IMG/VR virus record: IMGVR_UViG_3300033072_000343
Coordinates: 6,110 to 70,109 of that record
Source of the DNA: a virus
Taxonomy: Duplodnaviria; Caudoviricetes
Reading direction: 5' to 3' (one strand)
Length of the DNA: 64,000 bases
Both the position numbers and the translations under genes were made by a program. Positions 3,094 to 48,766 of this stretch are shown piece by piece; the stretch's first letter is position 1; each line of letters begins with the position of its first letter. The notes below the pieces were generated by a model that saw nothing but the letters and a program-made list of their open reading frames with translations, was not told the DNA's origin and ran no database searches.

Positions 3094-4013
3094 TCAGGAA
3101 TGGATACACGACCGCGCATTCCATTTAGAGGGCGCTCCCAGACGTTCGTCTTGAAGCACTCTGCGAGTGTTTCGAGGTGCCGCTTGTTGATCGCTCGGCC
3201 AGCCTCGATCGAGTCCTCATCGAGCTCGAGTGTGACGCACACGTACGGCGGCAACTTCTCCGCCACAATGAAGACCCACCGACTCTTCTTCACATCAGTC
3301 GTGAATGGATCGTCTGTCGAGGTCAACATGTTGTACAGGTCGATGTACCACGCCGCCTGTTGTGCGTACCCCCACTTCTTGATGGAGTATGAGAAGTCGT
3401 CTGGGTTCGCGTATCCGCGGTCTACCGTCTTGAGGTCCGCAATCGCCTCCGCATCGCTTCCCTTGCTTGAACAGATGATGTCAGCCTTGCCCTTGGTTCG
3501 GATGGTTACTCCGTTGACGACGATCGTCTTGAACATGGCCACCTCCTTCAAAGCCCCATCCATCAGCTTGACTGCGTCTGCATTGGACATGACGCCTTGA
3601 GTGATTCCGGCGATTTGGGTCGAGTCGTCCTGAGAAAGCTCAGTCTTCCCAGCATTGGCGGCACTCCAATCGTCCCACCACTTGATGGCTGCGATGGTGT
3701 CCTCGCTCGGCTTCTTGGCGTTACGTTGAGCGTCGGTAGGCTTCCGGGGAGCGTCAGCCGGCTTGAGGACCGTCTTTCTGGCGTACTCCTCAGGCTCAAG
3801 AACCGAAAGGTGGGTAAGCGTTCCGATCTCCTGAGCCTCGGTTTGTTCAGCGCGATATCCACCAAACTTCTTGGACCAGAAGTGAAGCGGCGACAGCGAC
3901 ATCTCCTTGAGGTCTGAGATGGCGATTGCCGGATCGTTTCGATACACCCGCTCGTCCAGCAGGTGATGAATGCCGTCATGGACCAACCCGTTCTCGTCAA
4001 GTATCGTTCTCAT
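3072..4013 (-). CDS. PD-(D/E)XK exonuclease, RecE/ExoVIII-like (DUF3799-type)
   Basis: ISDLK..SPLHF, GTLTHLSVLEP, KGKADII..IADLKT and YAQQAAWY; adjacent to the Sak4-like ATPase. Confidence 0.8.
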   Translation of the reverse strand: MRTILDENGLVHDGIHHLLDERVYRNDPAIAISDLKEMSLSPLHFWSKKFGGYRAEQTEAQEIGTLTHLSVLEPEEYARKTVLKPADAPRKPTDAQRNAKKPSEDTIAAIKWWDDWSAANAGKTELSQDDSTQIAGITQGVMSNADAVKLMDGALKEVAMFKTIVVNGVTIRTKGKADIICSSKGSDAEAIADLKTVDRGYANPDDFSYSIKKWGYAQQAAWYIDLYNMLTSTDDPFTTDVKKSRWVFIVAEKLPPYVCVTLELDEDSIEAGRAINKRHLETLAECFKTNVWERPLNGMRGRVSIPEWARKKS

Positions 4014-4025
4014 GGGTGATCGCGA

Positions 4026-4892
4026 TTAGGCGGTGGCCTTGGCGAGGAACGCGGCCGTATTTGACAGGATCTTCTCCGCGTTGGTTACAGACAGATCTCG
4101 GAATGTTTGGCTTTCCCTGATCCATCCAAGCGTCACAAGGAACGCATTGGCCTTGGGTTCATTAGCGCCGATGACGGCGGCCAACTGCGTCTTCCACACA
4201 GGCTCACCTCCGGACAGACGCCACGCTTCAAGCTGAGCACCTGTCTCCTCGGTGATCTGGAAAATCTTGTCGACGAAAAGGCCAGAGCGGTCCTTGGAGA
4301 CAGCGGCCTGATGATTGAGAGCCACATCGAACACCGTGGTGAACTCGTATTCGATTCCGTCACGCATGATCGGAGCCAGGCCGACCTTCTTGATCTGGGT
4401 CTTGCCTCGGTCATCCTTCTCCTGAACGTAGTCCATCTTGGAGCGCATGCAGCAGATGACATGTGCCGGAGACTGCAACACGGCCTTCACGATTCCGCCG
4501 AACTTGTCGCCGGCAATCTTCCAGTTGGTGTAGGAGTTGCCGCCGCGTTGATCGAGCTTGTCCTTGTAATCAAGGATTCCCTCCCAGAAGTGCGATGCGC
4601 TATCGATAACTATGGCTCCGTATCCAGCTTCTACAGCCGCGTCGACGCCCTCGATGAACTTCTCGTTGTCGAACGGAGGAGCAATGTCGAGCGTGTCGAA
4701 GTCGAATCGGTCGGCGTACAGGGACGCAGAGCGATTCTCAGTATCGATGAGGGCAATCTTTCCGGTGGGGCCAACAAGGCCTCGCGCGAGCCGAAGAGAC
4801 GAGTACGTTTTTCCGGAACCAGACGGACCGGTGACCGCGAGTTTCAGGAAGACCTTCTCGCGGGTTGCTTTGCGAAACAGTGGTGTAGACAT
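4026..4892 (-). CDS. AAA ATPase, Sak4-like single-strand annealing protein
   Basis: GPSGSGKT, IDTENRS, VIDSASHFW and GIEYEFTTVF. Confidence 0.8.
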   Translation of the reverse strand: MSTPLFRKATREKVFLKLAVTGPSGSGKTYSSLRLARGLVGPTGKIALIDTENRSASLYADRFDFDTLDIAPPFDNEKFIEGVDAAVEAGYGAIVIDSASHFWEGILDYKDKLDQRGGNSYTNWKIAGDKFGGIVKAVLQSPAHVICCMRSKMDYVQEKDDRGKTQIKKVGLAPIMRDGIEYEFTTVFDVALNHQAAVSKDRSGLFVDKIFQITEETGAQLEAWRLSGGEPVWKTQLAAVIGANEPKANAFLVTLGWIRESQTFRDLSVTNAEKILSNTAAFLAKATA

Positions 4893-42400: not shown

Positions 42401-45400
42401 GGAGCGCACTGGTCGCAACCTCAAGGTTGGCGACACCACCGCATTTGGCCACGTCATCACCAAGGAGGATGTGAAGGCGGCCGAGCTTCAGGCCCGGTTC
42501 GCTGACGCGATCTACAAGGCGGCTCGCGGTTCCGAGAACGGCGGCATCGCCATGTACTATCCGACTCTGGTTCAGGAGTCGTTCATCCAGAACGGAGAGA
42601 AGCGCACCAGATATCGTTACGCTTATGCGGGTGGCGCGTTCACGACTCCGATGATTCTTGATCGAAGCGAGCTTCCCGGAAGCGTGCTCGACATGGCGAA
42701 GCGGTGGTACAACTACGGGACAAGCCCGTCATCCGCATCTTCAAACCGGCTTGCGCTCCTGCTTGGGCGCAAGTGGTTCGTCAACTTCGCGCTTAAGCAC
42801 GTCATGGAGATGAGTCCTCTCTACAAGAGGAACTCTCCGTACGCGAAGATCTACCAAGCACTCGCAGATCGCTATGCGTCCACGGGCAAGTTGCCTGGAA
42901 CTCTGGATGATCTCGTCAACGACATCGACGCGATGACGCCAGCTGTCGGCGACGAGTTGATTCGCAAGGCTGCGATAACGCAGCGCCTGGTCGACGAGAT
43001 CAGTCAGTTCGTTGAGTCTTACCTGACTCAGGTTCAGGGGTCTGATCGCGATGAAGAGACTGCCGCTCTAAAGACCGATGCGCTGTCTGCCAACTCGTTT
43101 AACTCGATCATCAGTGGATCAAACAACTTCACCAAGCCTCGTGGTGACATGGTTGCTCCGTCCAACTTCTACAACTTCACGCTGTCGAGCGACAGCGCCA
43201 AGGGCGTGATCGCGCACTCGGCCATGATGCCGATTCGTATGCGCCAGTTGGCGTTGATGGGTGATGCCAAGAAGGCGTTCGAGGCTGAGCTCGCCAAGAT
43301 CAACGATGAGATCAAGAGCCGGAAGGGTTCAGCAGGGTATCTCAATCGCGAATGGACTGAGCCGAAGCGCAACGTGCTCTCAGGCAAGGCGTATCTGAAT
43401 CAAGGCCAGCTGAGAGACCTCGTCACGATGATCAACAACAGCCTCGATGTTCTTAAGCAGACGCTTGAGAAGCCTGCTGTTGGACGACTTCAGACAACCG
43501 CGATCGAGGACATGCTGCAAGTTCGCCGCGTGATGCTGGTTGCCCAGCTGACATCGGCGATCATGAACTTCACTCAGGCTGTAACCGCCGGCCAGTTCAC
43601 TCCGAGCATCTATCTTCAGGGCTACAAGCCGAAGAGCCTGGTCAAACAGAGCCTGCTGCAGATTGTCAGAGGCGCTTGGGATACCGCTGCCGCGCTGTCT
43701 TCCGAGAACAAGGCGGTGTCTGGATGGCTCAAGGCCAACAAGTCCAAGTCCATGTTCCTGATGCGCAAGTTCGCTGAGCGCACCGAGGAGTTTCAGAGGA
43801 TGCAGGCTCGATCCAATTTCGAGGGATTCGCCGCTCCGCGATTGGGTGTGTTTGAGCGTGCTCGGATCATCCGCCAACTCGGAGGGTATGGATCTCCTGT
43901 TGAAGGGTTTGCTGACTCCAAGGGCTCTACGTCGCAAATGCTCGAGAGTGTGTTCTCGAAGTGGTTCCTGCCTCACGTTGCGCTGGCGATCCAAAACATC
44001 CCGGCCTCGGTTGATCGAGTGGCAAACCTGATCAACCTCATGTCCATTCAGGACTCCATGAACCTTGTGATGCGCTCCGGCATCTCAATCATGGAGAAGC
44101 GTGCGGCGTCTGGTGCTGCTGGATGGGACAACTGGTCTGACCCGAAGAACCTGATCAGCGAGGCTGAGGCCGATGCGGCCGGCTGGCAGCGCGAGACTCT
44201 GGTCAACATGCGTCAGGCGTTCTCTGGGCTTGGTGGTTTGGAGCGCGTGCTGCACGACTACTGGCTGCGGGTGCAGGCCGCCAAGGCTGCAGGCACTAGC
44301 ATCGACGACGTCCCGCCGATTGCTGATGAGGGATTCAATCGGGACGTGTCACGCGAGCTTCTCGGCATGACCAATGCCGCGATGGAGGGCATGCGGCCTG
44401 AGGCGATTCAGGGTCGCACCGTGTTGGGTCGCATCTACAACTTCCTGTTCACGTTCTCCAGCTGGGTGAACCGGTACTTCAGCACGCTTGGAAACCTGAC
44501 TGCTGTTGATCCGAAGCGTGGCTACATCAATTTCGCTGCTTACTCAGCGGTCTCGATGGCGCTTCTTCTGACTGTGCTTGCCATCTCTGGTGCATGGAAC
44601 AACGAGATCCGCGGGTTCTTCTACGAATTTGTGAAGGGCCGTCCGTACGCAGTGACTCGCGTTGGCGATGTGCTTCGAGACACCACCCCCGGAAGCATCG
44701 CGAAGCTGGCCGCGGCGTCGATTGGCTTGATGGTTCCCTACGCTGGCGAGTCGATCGCCAATCTGGTGGGCGGTCAAACCTACCGGAACTCCCCGACTGA
44801 TATCGCCAGCTTCTCGCAGAGTGTGCAGCTAGCCAAGACGTTCTCCTCCGCTATCGAGAGCGGCATGAAGACTGGCGACTGGACCGGAACGCTGGTCAAC
44901 ACGCTGCGCCAGACGGTTCCCGGAACCGATGCTGTGCTTAACCGACTGCCCGGGGTGCGTGCTGCAGATGCATCGGCCGATGCGGGACGTGCCGCCCGCG
45001 TCGCTGCTGGCCCGCTGGAGCTCTCCGACAAGGGTGGCCAGGGTGGAACGCCCACCAAGTTCAGCAACCTCGTCAAGAAGGCTGAGGCCGCTGCCTCCAG
45101 TGGCAATCTCGAGGAGGCCAGAAGCCTGCTTGAGCAGGCCGCTGAAGAGAAGAAGAAGACCGGAGGCACCGATCCGTACGGTGCTGTGAAGTCTGCGATC
45201 GCCGGCCGATCTGTTGACCGGAAGACGTTCGGCCGAAAGCTGACCGACGACGAACGTGAGGGGTTGCTCTCTCGCATGAGCGATAGCCAGCGTGCTGCCT
45301 ATCAGAAGGCTGAAGACGCCAACAAGGCGCTTGCCAGCCTGGTGCCTGAATCGGGAAGCCGCGGTGAGTACGAGCGGGTTGGCGGAAAGCCGAAGACTGC

Positions 45401-45602
45401 AATCGATCGAATGAACTCCAAGTTCAGGAAGATCCGTCGCTCCGCAACACCCAAGGCGCTGCGGACGATCAAGACCAAGATGTCGAAGCTCAAGCCGAAG
45501 AAGCTGAAGATCTCGAAGCCGAAGAGCGTGTCCGGCTCAAGGCTGCTGCGACCAAAAGCTCGGGCGGCGGGGGCTTTTGCGCTGCGCCCCGCCTCGATGT
45601 GA
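36405..45602 (+). CDS. Giant internal virion protein (3065 aa) with a zincin-like HExxH domain
   Basis: QAAFYD..SDTIYI..YLVMHEAVHAAT..NLAEFVGE; last gene of the structural operon. Confidence 0.7.
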   Translation: MPKIIAVEGQGNLQFGDDWSDEQIDQYIEDKYFGGQSSAQPQAMPSSQGQAMPAAEKQGVWDSFTSGFGRGFEAGGIPFYSGGKEAVKSVGVLSAALAAREGTASDEQMQRLREYKAEEDKAAAEAEGRGTLERIAYGVGRVLGEAPGFAGELALTGGVATAGEKAAVKAAATAVKALGKETAYTATRKAADWAADKVSGRIVRGVAGAAAQTIPSGATRIVSGTAERMTPGFDLEETPGGTYFTETKQADPFLTAAYKALGDQFVEVLSERSGGFLTDMLGAGARKAGLGKAIDWTSGLKQAVASRVAKKYPGMFEGNDFIDAIGKTTKWDGVFGEMLEERAGEVGRAALGVQDYQAPSMEQLATEAIGFGLIDAGFNGARLAASLSKKNLSKEQRDRTQQALDAVTAAESIAPTTAPVRRAARIEDTESGLADVVDTTGAVTPFDRITRNNSANRRARVEAGLTGQSGEIYDLPEPIRAATVKTGDSTAYSGMDLESQTSPVDQFVLSQPNEPLSLPETVAKQYTGISQVLSSYFSGQDVDQDMIDTLFNQAPALIKQINNRLMSGINARVAPRELAPLSELSDSLSKFRDEFSKDLESKVDQMSRAREISQAEAQDRARRAVALQDAIAAFASPRAVRTDAGAAEAQDVSFTQSPIDAFILSRQRRKAGAIPESSTNAGLRENVDTTSETSPIDSFTLSTQRPAPAPAPAAATPTSLPTESSLPVGTGAAPVGGVPVAAPAIESELEKLSLFISDVAEESINYPSPAKMRSLAKKALNLGYINQRDYDEVIRVQKDSGSRDDTTDAMSELESYLIYRQDKISKLIADSKKTNVTQGQAPSAAAVAPVQPAKTETPSGPAGSQTTAPQGPVAAPKYTDGTEVKAGDTIRWRTAAGKNEVLGTIDSIKDGVPQVRVTQLSKKAPNTQKIGNIELSGVYPVVNSNLLEKREPVKEEEKKKVGRPSKITQTDDENVAAILEEGVNHPMWPRFSELMRGALNENEADEEALDALREQVGTRASVAMEAAFNQQTAFDFIDGQPSAVNLEIDDVLSNYERGLKKWVLKNIDSKSPVGFSPKKNLVISVRNSRKKSLIEKATTSMSSSVNEDGEESSPIEQFAQPVQKESAASLASIFRNVEALADAVVSAIQKAEAAVRGRQLTPTEFTNAVVSGFKSLIPNAPANVAETLSSIGLTASGNLQDIYDEKGIDGVDNAITEGEALLANAAAQDTGNRSLQQGEITLADAIDTVLAGNTASSWMRGIAEKLLKAKLRARVVVLSDAEFDRIAPRPGQAAFYDANPQSDTIYIRQSAASHDYLVMHEAVHAATVYALRTNVSFRNEVRRLRDAAVNALGANSFYGLQEHGSNFNNLAEFVGESMSSQEFRDALNGVVDKDGQSLWTKFLNLIGRLFGFKGEQKTLLDQIVNLSTEQFAPNVAISEGDQGVGELMSAPQIESAEQLNDLTSVPGLNAANIAAIENLAATQAQMIPASIVAQIATLPNTVRRSLNWLIEQAGASQSPKPLSSMPTATWQDEQAKHEAAHAVDKLARNVENERSKVLEELEKERQQYATSINGLKANLASANAEVAATTGVVDNLVEDYKEYVDDVKSVSGALSVAQKTAIEKESEIVRRTHKESDQMRKAISAIAEGVTDADLNNAQSNDDIVNIIATRKMLDGKVLPETINTLFTVGSSGKTPLQSMRRLIPALKMIKKINSNIAGVKVSVDAFEKAVAGMTGNKQRKVNPRAFARLYRRVLQKQSKAIEEARLLDNTINRMERKILKLVQELDVYDNLVASPEFSSQYEEAIRSLNILSSNAGDYGGAEGAKSDRKVTYKIGSQLYTIEYSADPAVNANNNAVVMSALAAIEAELKKPLSPIDRYKLMWMRTKLTLFSNPMGDAALAINSFDIINRLRVAIPILTPLIDRAYVLSLMPGTVGKELRILLKVSMSVASGIEAARMNPRYGEYAINLAVDNAIKSHPGLDARTWDKEVLNEFLGSNQERTGRNLKVGDTTAFGHVITKEDVKAAELQARFADAIYKAARGSENGGIAMYYPTLVQESFIQNGEKRTRYRYAYAGGAFTTPMILDRSELPGSVLDMAKRWYNYGTSPSSASSNRLALLLGRKWFVNFALKHVMEMSPLYKRNSPYAKIYQALADRYASTGKLPGTLDDLVNDIDAMTPAVGDELIRKAAITQRLVDEISQFVESYLTQVQGSDRDEETAALKTDALSANSFNSIISGSNNFTKPRGDMVAPSNFYNFTLSSDSAKGVIAHSAMMPIRMRQLALMGDAKKAFEAELAKINDEIKSRKGSAGYLNREWTEPKRNVLSGKAYLNQGQLRDLVTMINNSLDVLKQTLEKPAVGRLQTTAIEDMLQVRRVMLVAQLTSAIMNFTQAVTAGQFTPSIYLQGYKPKSLVKQSLLQIVRGAWDTAAALSSENKAVSGWLKANKSKSMFLMRKFAERTEEFQRMQARSNFEGFAAPRLGVFERARIIRQLGGYGSPVEGFADSKGSTSQMLESVFSKWFLPHVALAIQNIPASVDRVANLINLMSIQDSMNLVMRSGISIMEKRAASGAAGWDNWSDPKNLISEAEADAAGWQRETLVNMRQAFSGLGGLERVLHDYWLRVQAAKAAGTSIDDVPPIADEGFNRDVSRELLGMTNAAMEGMRPEAIQGRTVLGRIYNFLFTFSSWVNRYFSTLGNLTAVDPKRGYINFAAYSAVSMALLLTVLAISGAWNNEIRGFFYEFVKGRPYAVTRVGDVLRDTTPGSIAKLAAASIGLMVPYAGESIANLVGGQTYRNSPTDIASFSQSVQLAKTFSSAIESGMKTGDWTGTLVNTLRQTVPGTDAVLNRLPGVRAADASADAGRAARVAAGPLELSDKGGQGGTPTKFSNLVKKAEAAASSGNLEEARSLLEQAAEEKKKTGGTDPYGAVKSAIAGRSVDRKTFGRKLTDDEREGLLSRMSDSQRAAYQKAEDANKALASLVPESGSRGEYERVGGKPKTAIDRMNSKFRKIRRSATPKALRTIKTKMSKLKPKKLKISKPKSVSGSRLLRPKARAAGAFALRPASM

Positions 45603-45903
45603 ATGACAGGGGGCTGACAGTCTTCCGCGGGTCGAGAGACCTGCGGAGGAAGTAGCGGTGACGCCAGAGGTTGCGGAGTGTGACGCCACAGCCTCGCATG
45701 AATGCGTCAGCGTCTCCGATGGAGACCTTGTCCCACGACTTCATCAGCGACAGGTCACGCACCTTCTCATAGGAGAGCCCGCTACGCTTGGCGATGTCGT
45801 GGTGGGTGAGGCGTTTGGCCCCTCGACCCTTACCCTCCCGCGCTAAGAGCCGGATGATCTGGGGAGGGAATGCGCGAAGCATTTCGGAGATCGAGTCTTT
45901 CAT
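45490..45903 (-). CDS. XRE-like helix-turn-helix protein
   Basis: LTHHDIAKRSGLSYEKVRDL HTH; overlaps the giant gene convergently by 113 nt. Confidence 0.6.
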   Translation of the reverse strand: MKDSISEMLRAFPPQIIRLLAREGKGRGAKRLTHHDIAKRSGLSYEKVRDLSLMKSWDKVSIGDADAFMRGCGVTLRNLWRHRYFLRRSLDPRKTVSPLSFTSRRGAAQKPPPPELLVAAALSRTRSSASRSSASSA

Positions 45904-45914
45904 CTGCGACTGAC

Positions 45915-46075
45915 TGTAAATGGATGACCCATCGGATTGAACGGCTGGATTTCAACTCTTGGTTCCAGTGAGTAGTCTTGCAAACACCCCACCGTCTATC
46001 AGCCAAAGTACCCGAACCTCTGGACCCTAGGCCCAGCGTGTCTTATGCCCGTCGGCTTTCTCTACACCATGGATC
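45915..46075 (-). ncRNA. Candidate structured RNA downstream of the tRNA
   Basis: Stems AGCCGA/TTGGCT, CTGGGCC/GGTCCAG, ACGG/CCGT and CTGGA/TCCAG; no convincing ORF. Confidence 0.3.
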
Positions 46076-46080
46076 AAAAT

Positions 46081-46155
46081 TGGTAGCGGGGGGTGGACTC
46101 GAACCACCGACCGTCTGCTTATGAGGCAGCCTAGCTACCGCTGCTACACCCCGCC
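46081..46155 (-). tRNA. tRNA-Met (CAU), initiator-like body, encoded CCA
   Basis: 75-nt cloverleaf GGCGGGG-TG-TAGC-AGCGGTA-GCTA-G-GCTGC-CTCATAA-GCAGA-CGGTC-GGTGG-TTCGAGT-CCACC-CCCCGCT-A-CCA. Confidence 0.92.
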
Positions 46156-46159
46156 ACGA

Positions 46160-46380
46160 AAACCACTGGGGCGCTCCGTTTTACGCGGTTACGGAGCAGG
46201 GACACCATGTTACCAGCGAACCACCGCCGCCGCGATCCCCGCTTACCCCAGCAAAATTAGCCCGTTGTTGTCACAGTGTGAGGAGGCTAGAAGACCCTTC
46301 CCCCTCGGGCGCACTGCGGGTGCCGGTCTTTCCCGACTGCCACTGCTTGTCATCGCAGAGTCGAATCAATCAACCATTAC
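46160..46380 (-). ncRNA. Candidate structured RNA / long tRNA leader
   Basis: ~220 nt between promoter D and the tRNA; stems GTCGG/CCGGC, CAGTG/CACTG, GAGG/CCTC and GCTCCGT/ACGGAGC. Confidence 0.35.
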
Positions 46381-46386
46381 GCACTA

Positions 46387-46415
46387 GGTGTAGTACACCA
46401 TGTGGGCGATGTCAA
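46387..46415 (-). promoter_or_regulatory. Promoter class site D (TTGACA-N17-TACACC, perfect palindrome GGTGTACTACACC)
   Basis: Read directly; would drive the RNA-tRNA-HTH transcript. Confidence 0.75.
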
Positions 46416-46422
46416 CGAGTGA

Positions 46423-47037
46423 TCAAGCGGACTCCAGAAGAATATTCTCCGTGACCCACTTGTCCTCCGCTTCCCGTGTCGCGAGCATTCTGCGCACGAT
46501 GTCGATGTTGTTTCGGAACACCGCGTACATGCCGCCCGCCTTGCTGATCGTGATGTTGCTGGTGGGAACCCGGTTCCAGGGGATCCAGTAGACCTCCTTG
46601 GTGTCGAGTTGATACAGCGCGATCACGTCTGCTTGAGGCATCTTACCGATGCGATAGAACCAGCCTGAGCATGGTCCGTACTTAGCGAACTTGGCGGTCT
46701 TCACGTCCACCCGGAGGACATCTTTGACCAGCAAGTCGTATGGGCTCTTGACGGCGGACGGTCGATCAACAGTGAAGCCCTGCTCGCGCAGGATCTTAGC
46801 CACCTCGATCTCTCCATCCCAACCGGTGTCGGAGTCCGAGTGTTCACGGGGAATCCCGAGACGCTCAGACCACTTGATGAATCCACCCTTCTTGGTGATC
46901 TGGTTTTGCAGGTCAGCCTGTCCAGTCTCGTTTAGATAGGTGTTGGTCGGGAACTTTCCGGTGTTGCGGTAGTTCTCCATGATGCGGTCTGCGATCATGG
47001 CTTCAGTCCACTTGATGCGTGCCATAGGCGAGGACAT
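46423..47037 (-). CDS. Free-standing PD-(D/E)XK endonuclease, group I intron / I-Ssp6803I-like, with an N-terminal helical DNA-binding domain
   Basis: GWDGEIEVAKILREQGFTV..SPYDLLV..RVDVKTAK..ADVIALY..YWIP; the start may be 47025. Confidence 0.7.
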   Translation of the reverse strand: MSSPMARIKWTEAMIADRIMENYRNTGKFPTNTYLNETGQADLQNQITKKGGFIKWSERLGIPREHSDSDTGWDGEIEVAKILREQGFTVDRPSAVKSPYDLLVKDVLRVDVKTAKFAKYGPCSGWFYRIGKMPQADVIALYQLDTKEVYWIPWNRVPTSNITISKAGGMYAVFRNNIDIVRRMLATREAEDKWVTENILLESA

Positions 47038-47074
47038 TGACCACGATCAGAACCGATGTGTACAGCAGAATGTT

Positions 47075-47545
47075 TTAGAACGGAATGTCGTCCGAGTTAT
47101 CTTCAGCAGGCCCATCGTTGGACACACCCGCAGCAGCCTGCCGCTGGCTGACAGGGGCCTGCTGTTGATTGAAGCGTTGGACATTGGAACCGCCACCAGT
47201 CGGAGGGGTGGACGGCCGAGACAGCAGCTGGAGGTTTTCACCGAAGATGCCGAGCTTGCTTCGCTTCTCCCCAGTCTTCTTGTCCTCCCACTGGTCGAGC
47301 TTGAGGCGTCCGTCGATCAGGATGGGGTCACCCTTCTTGACGTACTTACTGACCACGTCGGAAACCTTTCCGATGAAGTCAACGTCCACGAACGTGGTTT
47401 CCTCCTTCTTCTCACCACTCTCAGTGGAGAACTTGCGGGAGACTGCCAGTCCGATCTTTGCGATAGAGGTGCCCTTGGGGGTGACCCTGACTTCGGGATC
47501 ACGGGTGACGTTGCCCATGAGGACGACCTTGTTGTACGATGCCAT
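47075..47545 (-). CDS. ssb: Single-stranded DNA-binding protein
   Basis: NKVVLMGNVTRDPEVR, KGDPILIDGRL and acidic tail DDIPF. Confidence 0.97.
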   Translation of the reverse strand: MASYNKVVLMGNVTRDPEVRVTPKGTSIAKIGLAVSRKFSTESGEKKEETTFVDVDFIGKVSDVVSKYVKKGDPILIDGRLKLDQWEDKKTGEKRSKLGIFGENLQLLSRPSTPPTGGGSNVQRFNQQQAPVSQRQAAAGVSNDGPAEDNSDDIPF

Positions 47546-47584
47546 GTTATTCCTTTTTGTTAGTGATAGCGCACGAAGCGCGTA

Positions 47585-48766
47585 CTAACTAAAGACGTTC
47601 ACATCCCTGATGTCAACGACCAGTCGGAACCCACAGGTGGGCTCTCCGATTTCATTGCACGGGATGGTGACAGCACGTTTTCCTTCAGCGTTTTCAAGGG
47701 TCTTCACGAACTGCACCGGCTCTCCATCCGGCAGGTTGATCCGCCCCTTCTTCACGATGTAGATGCGCTCAGGCTTGAATGTGAACGCGCTGGACTGGGA
47801 GACGCGCTGGCCATTGGTGACCACCGTGATCTCCTGCATAACGCCCGCTTTGACGCGAGCCTCGGACACACCTTGCCTGATGGCGTTGGTGTCGACGTGA
47901 ACGTACTGGGAGAAGACCCTCGGATCGAGGTGACCCGAGACCTTGGTTGCCAGGATGGTGCTCATGCCGCTGTTGGCCAGCATCGAGACGAATGAGTGGC
48001 GGAGGCTGTGGAACCGCTTGCTGCGATCGATGCCCGCCTTGTCTGCGATGTACCTGAATGCGTCGCTGCCACTACTGGCAATGACGTGTCGGTCCATGTT
48101 GACCCTGCTGCCTGCCTGCTCCGACACGAAGTCGGTTGGGCTGGCGTTGGGGGACTCAGCACGCAGGGCCTGCAATGCCCTGCCAAGCTCATCTGTTGGG
48201 CTGAATGGTATGATCGCCTCGGTCCCGGTCTTCACGCGCCTGATGCGGATGAAGCACTTGTCCATGTCGACGTCACCCCACCGCAGCATCATGCAGTCTG
48301 CGATGGACATGCCCGTGTTCCACCCAAGCAGGATGACCCAGTCCATCCAGTGCCCGGCTGCCGTGTGGCGCAGCTTGAGGTACTCCTCGTGGGTGATGGC
48401 GTTCACACTCCGCTCGTCGCGGACGGTCGGCTTGCGCACTGCGTGGTGAGGACTCGTGGCCACTCGACCAGTAGTCTCAAGCCACCGCAGGAACCGACTG
48501 ACAGAGTTCCAATACTCCTGAGCGGTGCGCGGCTTGTAGTTCTCGAAGAGCCGGGTGCAGTAGGTCTGCAGGTTCTCCGATGTGATTCGGTTGTGATGGC
48601 ATCCTTTCATCCATGACAACCACTTGTGTACCCACAGCTTTGAGAAGTGGATTGTTGCTGGGCGTCGACCTGGGAAGTCGTTGTTGTGATATGTCACAGC
48701 AAGCTGTTCAAGCTGTGACGGAGTCATGTCTATCACATGACCCTGATACGCAGTTTCTGAAGTCAT
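47585..48766 (-). CDS. Tyrosine recombinase / integrase-family protein
   Basis: SAM-like N-domain, NTGMSIAD, FHSLRHSF, SGH...FSQYVH; ~90-aa C-terminal extension. Confidence 0.85.
   Translation of the reverse strand: MTSETAYQGHVIDMTPSQLEQLAVTYHNNDFPGRRPATIHFSKLWVHKWLSWMKGCHHNRITSENLQTYCTRLFENYKPRTAQEYWNSVSRFLRWLETTGRVATSPHHAVRKPTVRDERSVNAITHEEYLKLRHTAAGHWMDWVILLGWNTGMSIADCMMLRWGDVDMDKCFIRIRRVKTGTEAIIPFSPTDELGRALQALRAESPNASPTDFVSEQAGSRVNMDRHVIASSGSDAFRYIADKAGIDRSKRFHSLRHSFVSMLANSGMSTILATKVSGHLDPRVFSQYVHVDTNAIRQGVSEARVKAGVMQEITVVTNGQRVSQSSAFTFKPERIYIVKKGRINLPDGEPVQFVKTLENAEGKRAVTIPCNEIGEPTCGFRLVVDIRDVNVFS

Follow-up and report, generated by a model that had tools for sequence, protein, structure and literature searches.

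A free-standing I-Ssp6803I-like nuclease cassette behind the SSB tip codons of a freshwater phage lineage, and the initiator-derived tRNA(CAU) beside it

To our knowledge, I-Ssp6803I is the only characterised homing endonuclease of the PD-(D/E)XK type, and it is encoded by an intron in a cyanobacterium. The homologues of I-Ssp6803I are generally cyanobacterial as well (PMC3384342). Free-standing endonucleases that spread by 'intronless homing' are described from T4-like phages, namely the GIY-YIG enzymes SegA-G and the HNH enzymes MobA-E (PMC2988022), and nuclease genes have been found to mark exchange boundaries between phages (PMC10448857). Here we describe a PD-(D/E)XK nuclease gene in a 64,000-nt stretch of phage DNA (hereafter the window), which comprises most of a 70,109-bp IMG/VR virus record (IMGVR_UViG_3300033072_000343) judged complete. 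On its minus strand, a tyrosine recombinase gene, the single-stranded DNA-binding protein gene ssb, a 204-aa nuclease open reading frame (ORF), a 267-nt leader, a tRNA(CAU) and a helix-turn-helix (HTH)-like ORF follow one another. The best reading of the nuclease, judged from sequence, is a free-standing homing-type endonuclease gene that would target the DNA encoding the C-terminal tip of SSB-type proteins. The locus probably holds two independent things, i.e. a mobile nuclease cassette and a tRNA resident in the phage lineage, rather than one nuclease-tRNA module.

The nuclease cassette and its insertion behind ssb

The features of the cassette and of the gene that it follows are listed below with the evidence for each.

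46423-47037, minus strand: nuclease ORF, 204 aa (ORF list, Pfam, filled and empty alignments)
46426-46842, minus strand: PD-(D/E)XK nuclease domain (PF11645, invariant residues, 2OST as top structural match)
46810-46812, 46735-46737, 46705-46707 and 46699-46701, minus strand: predicted catalytic residues E76, D101, D111 and K113, respectively (invariance in homologues)
46843-47037, minus strand: N-terminal four-helix module, residues 1-65, PF18780-related (profile search, AlphaFold2)
46426-47077, minus strand: mobile cassette, 652 bp (filled versus empty alignments)
47075-47545, minus strand: ssb, 156 aa, PF00436, product ending ...SDDIPF (Pfam)
47078-47095, minus strand: codons of the SSB C-terminal tip (S-D-D-I-P-F), putative landing or recognition sequence (junction TTC TAA AAC common to cassettes behind unrelated genes)

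The ORF contains the PD-(D/E)XK motif on which the original prediction had drawn and ends 267 nt upstream of the tRNA. In Pfam it matched PDDEXK_5 (PF11645) with 28.5 bits versus a gathering score of 26.1 bits (E 1.7e-6), bearing out the family assignment proposed earlier, and PF11645 was matched at E<0.01 by 14 of 62 homologues. These 62 were the intact ones chosen from 122 found by protein search, and the four residues E76, D101, D111 and K113 were invariant across all of them. The AlphaFold2 model of the nuclease had a predicted local distance difference test (pLDDT) score of 94.6, and its best PDB match by Foldseek was I-Ssp6803I (2OST), which occupied ranks 1-4 with E values of 1.8e-7 to 2.6e-6 and template modelling scores of 0.69-0.78 on the target. 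NhoI, the SPARDA nucleases and Hjc trailed 2OST by two to four orders of magnitude in this fold search. At the sequence level the nuclease was only 14-16% identical to I-Ssp6803I, and PDB chains searched by single sequence and by profile returned only chance ankyrin-repeat matches. NCBIfam gave no match to the nuclease, PHROGs gave an unnamed family only, and 50,697 GenBank phage records yielded no homologue except one weak match.

Since Hjc structures appeared among the fold matches and the gene adjoins ssb, we considered a Hjc-type Holliday-junction resolvase of the phage recombination module. This role is highly improbable and was rejected: Hjc ranked far below I-Ssp6803I (E 1e-3 versus 1.8e-7), the gene is dispensable in close relatives, a homologue-bearing locus (L003) has a separate nearby ORF that looks RuvC-like by eye, and the window protein bears an extra homing-endonuclease repeat domain.

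This extra domain comprises the N-terminal ~65 residues, which were modelled as a four-helix domain (AlphaFold2, pLDDT 88). The family profile, run against 1.84 billion representatives, gave 2513 matches, ~1300 of them at E<=1e-10, a set that includes multi-repeat PF18780 proteins matching the N-terminal module only; many of the matches were long proteins with 7-13 copies of the module, and the profile region that they matched was the family's first ~60 positions. When eight of the long or multi-copy matches were scanned with Pfam, six passed the gathering score of PF18780, the Pfam 'Homing endonuclease associated repeat' (E down to 6e-35), and two fell just below it. A direct PF18780 match was found in only one of the 62 family members, and the N-terminal domain alone gave weak helix-turn-helix-like matches in a fold search (best Z 5.7). 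Profile and model together predict an architecture of a PF18780-type DNA-binding repeat followed by an I-Ssp6803I-fold PD-(D/E)XK domain. When longer proteins containing the nuclease in fused form were sought, none came up, which is weak evidence. As side observations, the multi-repeat proteins (P0124, P0128, P0150 and others) are 500-1900 aa long and built of 7-13 PF18780-type repeats, and P0128 additionally matches P22 Cro and YdaS models. A comparison of window positions 46700-47037 with positions 4001-4340 of the related contig L004 shows that the nuclease gene, too, is a mosaic, with 8-30 mismatches per 50 nt in the 5' half, which encodes the DNA-binding module and the beginning of the nuclease domain, versus 1-2 in the 3' half.

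The gene is free-standing, lying between ssb and the leader and not within a group I intron; an Rfam search over 45000-48000 found no intron, and the tRNA is uninterrupted. Homologues at least 76% identical to the window nuclease came from the same phage lineage with the same gene order, and further lineage members were recovered by searching with the invariant 3' part of the tRNA. Counted as distinct contigs carrying the ssb-tRNA interval, four have the nuclease gene (the window, L001, L002 and L004/L005) and seven do not (L016, L017, L019, L055, L056, L058 and L059). All seven nuclease-less relatives keep the recombinase, ssb, leader, tRNA, HTH ORF and giant ORF, the recombinase being retained with and without the cassette by tblastn. 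With the PF11645 score above cut-off, 2OST as top match, no intron and sporadic presence, the earlier description of the nuclease as free-standing, I-Ssp6803I-like and selfish-looking stands.

Close relatives with the empty allele allowed the insertion to be placed to the base. The flanking proteins of L058 and L056 are 98-99% identical to those of the window, and their leader and tRNA (~340 nt) show zero mismatches to it, bar a few bases at the junction. The two alleles read as follows.

Empty: ...CCG TTC TGA TCAC..TTGACA
Filled: ...CCG TTC [TAA AAC ... nuclease ... GCT] TGA TCAC..TTGACA

The extra 652 bp (46426-47077) are inserted exactly after the final sense codon of ssb, ahead of the stop that it formerly used; they consist of the TAA at which ssb now ends, a 37-nt 5' untranslated region (UTR) and the nuclease ORF minus its stop. 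The stop of the nuclease, TGA (46423-46425), takes the position of the ssb stop in the nuclease-less relatives; the cassette gives ssb a new stop, and the nuclease reuses the old one. The change extends into ssb itself, where the final ~25 nt co-vary with the cassette (..SDDIPF in filled versus ..DDDVPF in empty alleles) and the final ~150 nt (47078-47230) are a mosaic hot spot, with 25-31 substitutions between genomes 99-100% identical elsewhere. The same cluster of ssb 3' differences was also seen in a 70-kb contig from a lake run. In two river runs (X15 and X16), empty-allele contigs at a depth of 10-12 were found alongside contigs covering the nuclease gene at a depth of 2-4; these contigs derive from RNA libraries, their depth has no bearing on transcription, and their uncovered parts carry no meaning.

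Cassettes behind SSB-type tips in unrelated phages

Viral contigs scanned with the help of the family profile yielded 32 usable loci, and the genes upstream of the nuclease were examined for the SSB C-terminal tip, i.e. acidic residues followed by I/V/L-P-F ([DE]..[IVL]PF). The ORF upstream of the nuclease ended in this motif in ~30 of the 32 viral loci and in seven other contexts, for example as DDIPF, DDLPF, EEIPF, SDVPF, QGLPF, ESIPF or DFVPF. Among 1637 ORFs of at least 80 codons in the window and 42 loci, just 36 end in the tip, and every one of the 36 is the gene directly upstream of a nuclease. No fewer than six unrelated families are represented among the products of the upstream genes, with canonical SSB, an SSB-like PHROG, a DNA helicase and three families without known function among them; the helicase case is L046, where a phage DNA helicase (PHROG 16, 1284-2972) ends ...YSDDSIPF and the cassette lies directly behind it. 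Nucleases 62-66% identical to that of the window occur behind such unrelated genes, and the conserved partner of the nuclease across phages is the 3' end of ssb-type genes. From this pattern we infer that the cassette would land directly behind any phage gene that encodes a terminal SSB tip, and not behind one gene family.

The sequence shared between these cassettes extends past the tip codons. The DNA junction is usually TTC TAA AAC and is common to cassettes behind unrelated genes; the junction TTCTAAAAC and an inverted repeat in the 5' UTR move along with the cassette. The 5' UTR begins inside the stop codon, and the inverted repeat AAAACGA...TCGTTTTA is common to unrelated host phages and may control the nuclease as an operator or attenuator. 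In the 5' UTRs of L023-L050, the repeat, AAAACGA(T)...(A)TCGTTTTA, starts in the ssb stop and encloses a TTGTCA/TTGACA box, and it is degenerate in the window itself.

A second lineage was assembled by fetching 80 related loci with the 240-aa tip-ending protein of L035; the nuclease is present in 9 of these loci and absent from 68, and the other 3 are truncated. In two loci (L071 and L076) the 5' and 3' UTRs of the cassette are kept and the ORF is cleanly gone, leaving ORF-less footprints. In L033/L034, the upstream gene ends ..LPY TGA and the cassette starts 7 nt further on, after the stray bases 'ATT CTT TTC TAA AAC', the 3' terminus of a donor gene of the L030 type.

It is the exact insertion, the sporadic presence, the footprints, the carried fragment of an ssb tail, the association with the tip, and the fold with its intact catalytic residues that favour the homing-endonuclease reading. 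As a proposed mechanism, the enzyme would recognise the tip-coding 3' end, which is conserved as DNA because the tip peptide is conserved, and in a mixed infection would cut a cassette-less allele at or near it; repair off cassette-bearing genomes would then copy in the cassette together with the donor's final ssb codons, while the carrier would be protected by its altered stop codon, downstream sequence and tail codons. We infer cleavage, target site and self-immunity alike from sequence patterns. The behaviour of the cassette also fits the published observation on exchange boundaries (PMC10448857).

In the main rival reading, the nuclease has an accessory role in replication, recombination or conflict, partners SSB-tip proteins, is co-expressed with them, and spreads by ordinary recombination at the tip codons rather than by its own cleavage. 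It could be recruited via the acidic-IPF tip, as many SSB partners are. Such a partnership would suit the constant position behind tip-ending genes whatever their protein family, the invariant catalytic residues, the overlap of the nuclease start with the ssb stop in L007-L009, and the setting of the loci in replication modules with exonuclease, DnaB or Sak4-like genes. We nevertheless regard it as unlikely, though worth real weight, as the gene is absent from seven of the 11 lineage contigs with the ssb-tRNA interval and from 68 of the 77 second-lineage loci, ORF-less footprints occur, a donor tail fragment was carried to a non-tip site, the conserved junction reaches non-coding bases (the choice of stop codon and AAC), the protein combines a homing-endonuclease repeat with a homing-endonuclease fold, and no fused forms were found.

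Several points nevertheless count against targeting of the tip codons by a homing enzyme. The proposed target is read only from where the cassette sits, and the tip-coding sequence persists in cassette-bearing genomes, so that self-immunity would need to rest on a few substitutions, the changed stop and the downstream sequence. Partnership of the nuclease protein with the SSB tip, or a selective advantage of being expressed along with replication genes, could account for the fixed position instead, and catalytic residues invariant in the 62 intact homologues chosen from 122 may be more in keeping with a gene that serves the phage than with a purely selfish, decaying element. In addition, free-standing endonucleases can cleave at a distance of hundreds of bp from their own genes (PMC2988022), so the site in this lineage could lie elsewhere.

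A broader version, namely that the tip codons are a general landing pad for selfish nuclease cassettes whatever replication protein bears the tip, is put forward tentatively, at slightly less than even confidence. With such a landing pad, the cassette would bring its own final codons and stop, and would rewrite the end of an essential gene at every move; if true, the cassette could also serve against co-infecting phages as a weapon that cuts their ssb genes. The landing site would be a short, functionally constrained protein-interaction motif. Were cleavage confirmed, it would explain recombination hot spots at the 3' ends of phage ssb genes and would provide a natural enzyme family with a predictable target.

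The neighbouring initiator-derived tRNA(CAU)

The features downstream of the cassette and upstream of ssb are as follows.

46156-46422, minus strand: leader, 267 nt, conserved, non-coding (alignments)
46081-46155, minus strand: tRNA(CAU), initiator-derived, CCA encoded (ARAGORN, Rfam, identity table)
45490-45903, minus strand: HTH-like ORF, 137 aa, downstream of the tRNA, in all relatives (ORF list, comparison of relatives)
47585-48766, minus strand: tyrosine recombinase, PF00589, same operon direction (Pfam; tblastn versus relatives)

The original prediction had paired the nuclease with this tRNA, namely that the nuclease attacks canonical fMet tRNA genes of host or rival phages and the tRNA is an immune substitute. 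The homologues of the nuclease proved not to be linked to CAU tRNAs, and this pairing is not supported: a tRNA was found within 3 kb in only two of the 32 viral loci, both of this lineage, and within 4 kb in none of the seven further homologue contexts. Moreover, the seven nuclease-less relatives keep the same anticodon arm, with a tRNA identical to that of the window in five and one D-loop base off in L019 and L055, so the tRNA allele does not co-vary with the nuclease. The tRNA adjoins the nuclease only because the tRNA unit comes after ssb in this lineage. It could still be argued that the nuclease cuts canonical tRNA-fMet genes in the anticodon-arm region, as its fold is that of I-Ssp6803I, whose target is a tRNA-fMet gene (PMC3384342), the tRNA departs from canonical initiators mainly in the anticodon stem, and the sites of free-standing endonucleases can be far from the gene (PMC2988022). 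This is very improbable in view of the unchanged anticodon arm in the nuclease-less relatives, the lack of any tRNA within 3-4 kb of family members outside this lineage, and the like tRNAs (CUGC/GCAG or ACUGG/CCAGU stems) of phages that have no nuclease; an identity of 14-16% to I-Ssp6803I and the extra DNA-binding module mean that specificity is not transferable. The attractive picture of a nuclease with its matching immune tRNA is thereby corrected as unsupported, and the role of the tRNA is independent of the nuclease.

As for the tRNA itself, ARAGORN called a single tRNA-Met(CAU) on the minus strand at 46081-46155, and the Rfam tRNA model scored it at 57.2 bits with G27xA43 as the sole non-standard pair. 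The acceptor has G1·U72, G2:C71, C3:G70 and A73 with a GCGGGG/CCCCGC stem, and the D arm has A11:U24. It is 87% identical to a canonical initiator of a Chloroflexota-type metagenome-assembled genome (MAG) (L013) and 77% to E. coli metZ, versus 70% to ileX, 64% to L063, a Chloroflexota-type non-initiator CAU tRNA of unassigned isotype, and 60% to metT. An identity of 77-87% to initiators versus 60-70% to the others indicates that the tRNA is initiator-derived, and the initiator-type acceptor with A11:U24 noted in the original prediction was confirmed. On the same figures (60% to metT, 70% to ileX), and with A11:U24 in place of pyrimidine11:purine24, the tRNA does not resemble elongator Met or Ile2 tRNAs overall, and an Ile2 identity was rejected.

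Most of the differences from the canonical initiator fall in the anticodon stem, in the 10:25 pair and at position 1. The initiator 1:72 mismatch (C1xU72 in L013-L015, C1xA72 in E. coli metZ) is replaced by the wobble G1·U72, and the anticodon arm reads GCUGC-CUCAUAA-GCAGA, with G27xA43, U29:A41, G30:C40 and C31:G39. All three G:C pairs of the initiator anticodon stem had been described as lost; the stem is indeed rewritten and two are gone, but G30:C40 remains in the window, and L002 keeps two (G30:C40 and G31:C39). The tRNA is conserved in all 12 lineage contigs, and 11 related contigs, some carrying the nuclease and some lacking it, have the same anticodon arm. In L002, compensatory changes convert 10:25 from U:A to G:C and 31:39 from C:G to G:C, and 27:43 also changes from GxA to A:U; such compensation shows that the tRNA is kept foldable and argues for a working tRNA. 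Judging by these pairs, it most likely works as a Met tRNA that has departed from the rules for canonical initiators, whether as an initiator of an unconventional kind or as a tRNA able to act in elongation. Work from the RajBhandary laboratory reportedly shows that initiator mutants in which 1:72 is paired can act in elongation. For the three G:C pairs, an E. coli initiator mutant with UA/CG/AU in their place is described as formylated and inactive in initiation (PMC6393288). The suggestion in the original prediction that the altered arm may evade host anticodon nucleases is in line with a published idea on phage tRNAs and host tRNA nucleases (PMC10264068).

Initiator-like tRNAs were also found in the isolated phages phiM12 (L064), RcXuper (L065) and Dulem virus 40 (L067). 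Initiator-derived phage tRNAs with a weakly paired 1:72 and eroded G:C pairs look like a recurrent class from the sequences compared, and a role in initiation, in elongation or in evasion of tRNA-cleaving defences is directly testable.

Alternatively, the tRNA gene could mainly be the phage attachment site (attP) of the neighbouring tyrosine recombinase, which would integrate into a host initiator-tRNA gene via the invariant 3' part while the 5' part drifts. The recombinase gene lies 1.4 kb upstream, the tRNA is invariant from position 44 to CCA in all relatives with largely conserved sequence adjacent downstream, and a search of 185,579 species genomes with its 3' 32 nt gave exact matches only in three Chloroflexota-type MAGs, in each case in a canonical initiator tRNA gene. 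However, phage sequence flanks the tRNA on both sides in all 12 contigs with no host junction seen, no close relative of the recombinase was found in 301 genomes of the Chloroflexota-type phylum (E<=1e-20), the 5' half changes by compensatory pairs and not by free drift, and the 28-mer occurs only once in the window; integrated prophage copies were absent from the viral and metagenome contigs searched. We judge the attachment-site explanation doubtful, and it would in any case be compatible with a working tRNA. The initiator tRNAs of the three MAGs (L013, L014 and L015) have C1xU72 and the 3' 32 nt identical to the phage tRNA, and the genomes of these MAGs yielded just one further CAU tRNA.

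The leader (46156-46422) is conserved in all relatives and begins TTGACA-17 nt-TACACC (TTGACA at 46410-46415). Near the tRNA it holds a hairpin, GCTCCG...CGGAGC, which in L002 and L055 has a different but still complementary stem. A strict scan for sigma-70 promoters and terminators over 45400-47700 found none, so the TTGACA boxes are merely suggestive. The motif CATGGTGTA occurs in one copy at the start of the leader and in another just past the tRNA. Further downstream, the minus-strand block from the recombinase to the HTH-like ORF converges on a plus-strand ORF of 3065 aa; the HTH-like ORF (45490-45903) overlaps the 3' end of the latter by ~110 nt and is 85-99% conserved in all relatives. 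Freshwater metagenomes of at least 15 studies, including those of rivers and lakes, contain the phage.

Comparison with described systems

In comparison with bacterial tRNA-fMet, the tRNA of the window has the same GCGGGG/CCCCGC acceptor, A11:U24, CUCAUAA loop and A73, and differs in that 1:72 is a G·U wobble and not a mismatch and that only G30:C40 of the three G:C pairs remains. The tRNA-Met genes of phiM12, RcXuper and Dulem virus 40 share the initiator-type acceptor and D arms, a weak or re-paired 1:72 (U1:A72) and U29:A41; the CUGC/GCAG stem of phiM12 equals that of the window, and the ACUGG/CCAGU stem of Dulem virus 40 equals that of L002. These tRNAs are 76-80% identical overall and come from unrelated phages with other hosts (Sinorhizobium for phiM12, Rhodobacter for RcXuper), where they stand in multi-tRNA or other contexts with no nuclease homologue.

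For the nuclease, the PD-(D/E)XK core, the E...D...DxK residues and the selfish behaviour are held in common with I-Ssp6803I (2OST; PF11645), which is encoded in the group I intron of the Synechocystis tRNA-fMet gene. In contrast to I-Ssp6803I, the window nuclease lies outside an intron, has 14-16% identity and an added N-terminal PF18780-type module, and its family is found behind ssb-type genes on freshwater phage contigs, not in or beside tRNA-fMet genes. In the uncultured freshwater phages studied here, the I-Ssp6803I fold is joined to a homing-endonuclease repeat module and is carried by a free-standing cassette. With the free-standing Seg and Mob endonucleases of T4-like phages (PMC2988022), the cassette shares an intergenic place beside an essential replication gene, presence or absence among close relatives, flanks that change with the gene, consistent with co-conversion, and a regulatory hairpin-like 5' UTR; by analogy, it agrees with the definition of a free-standing homing endonuclease gene that was drawn up for these enzymes. 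It is unlike them in its nuclease fold, its codon-exact insertion and the same landing motif behind unrelated genes in unrelated phages.

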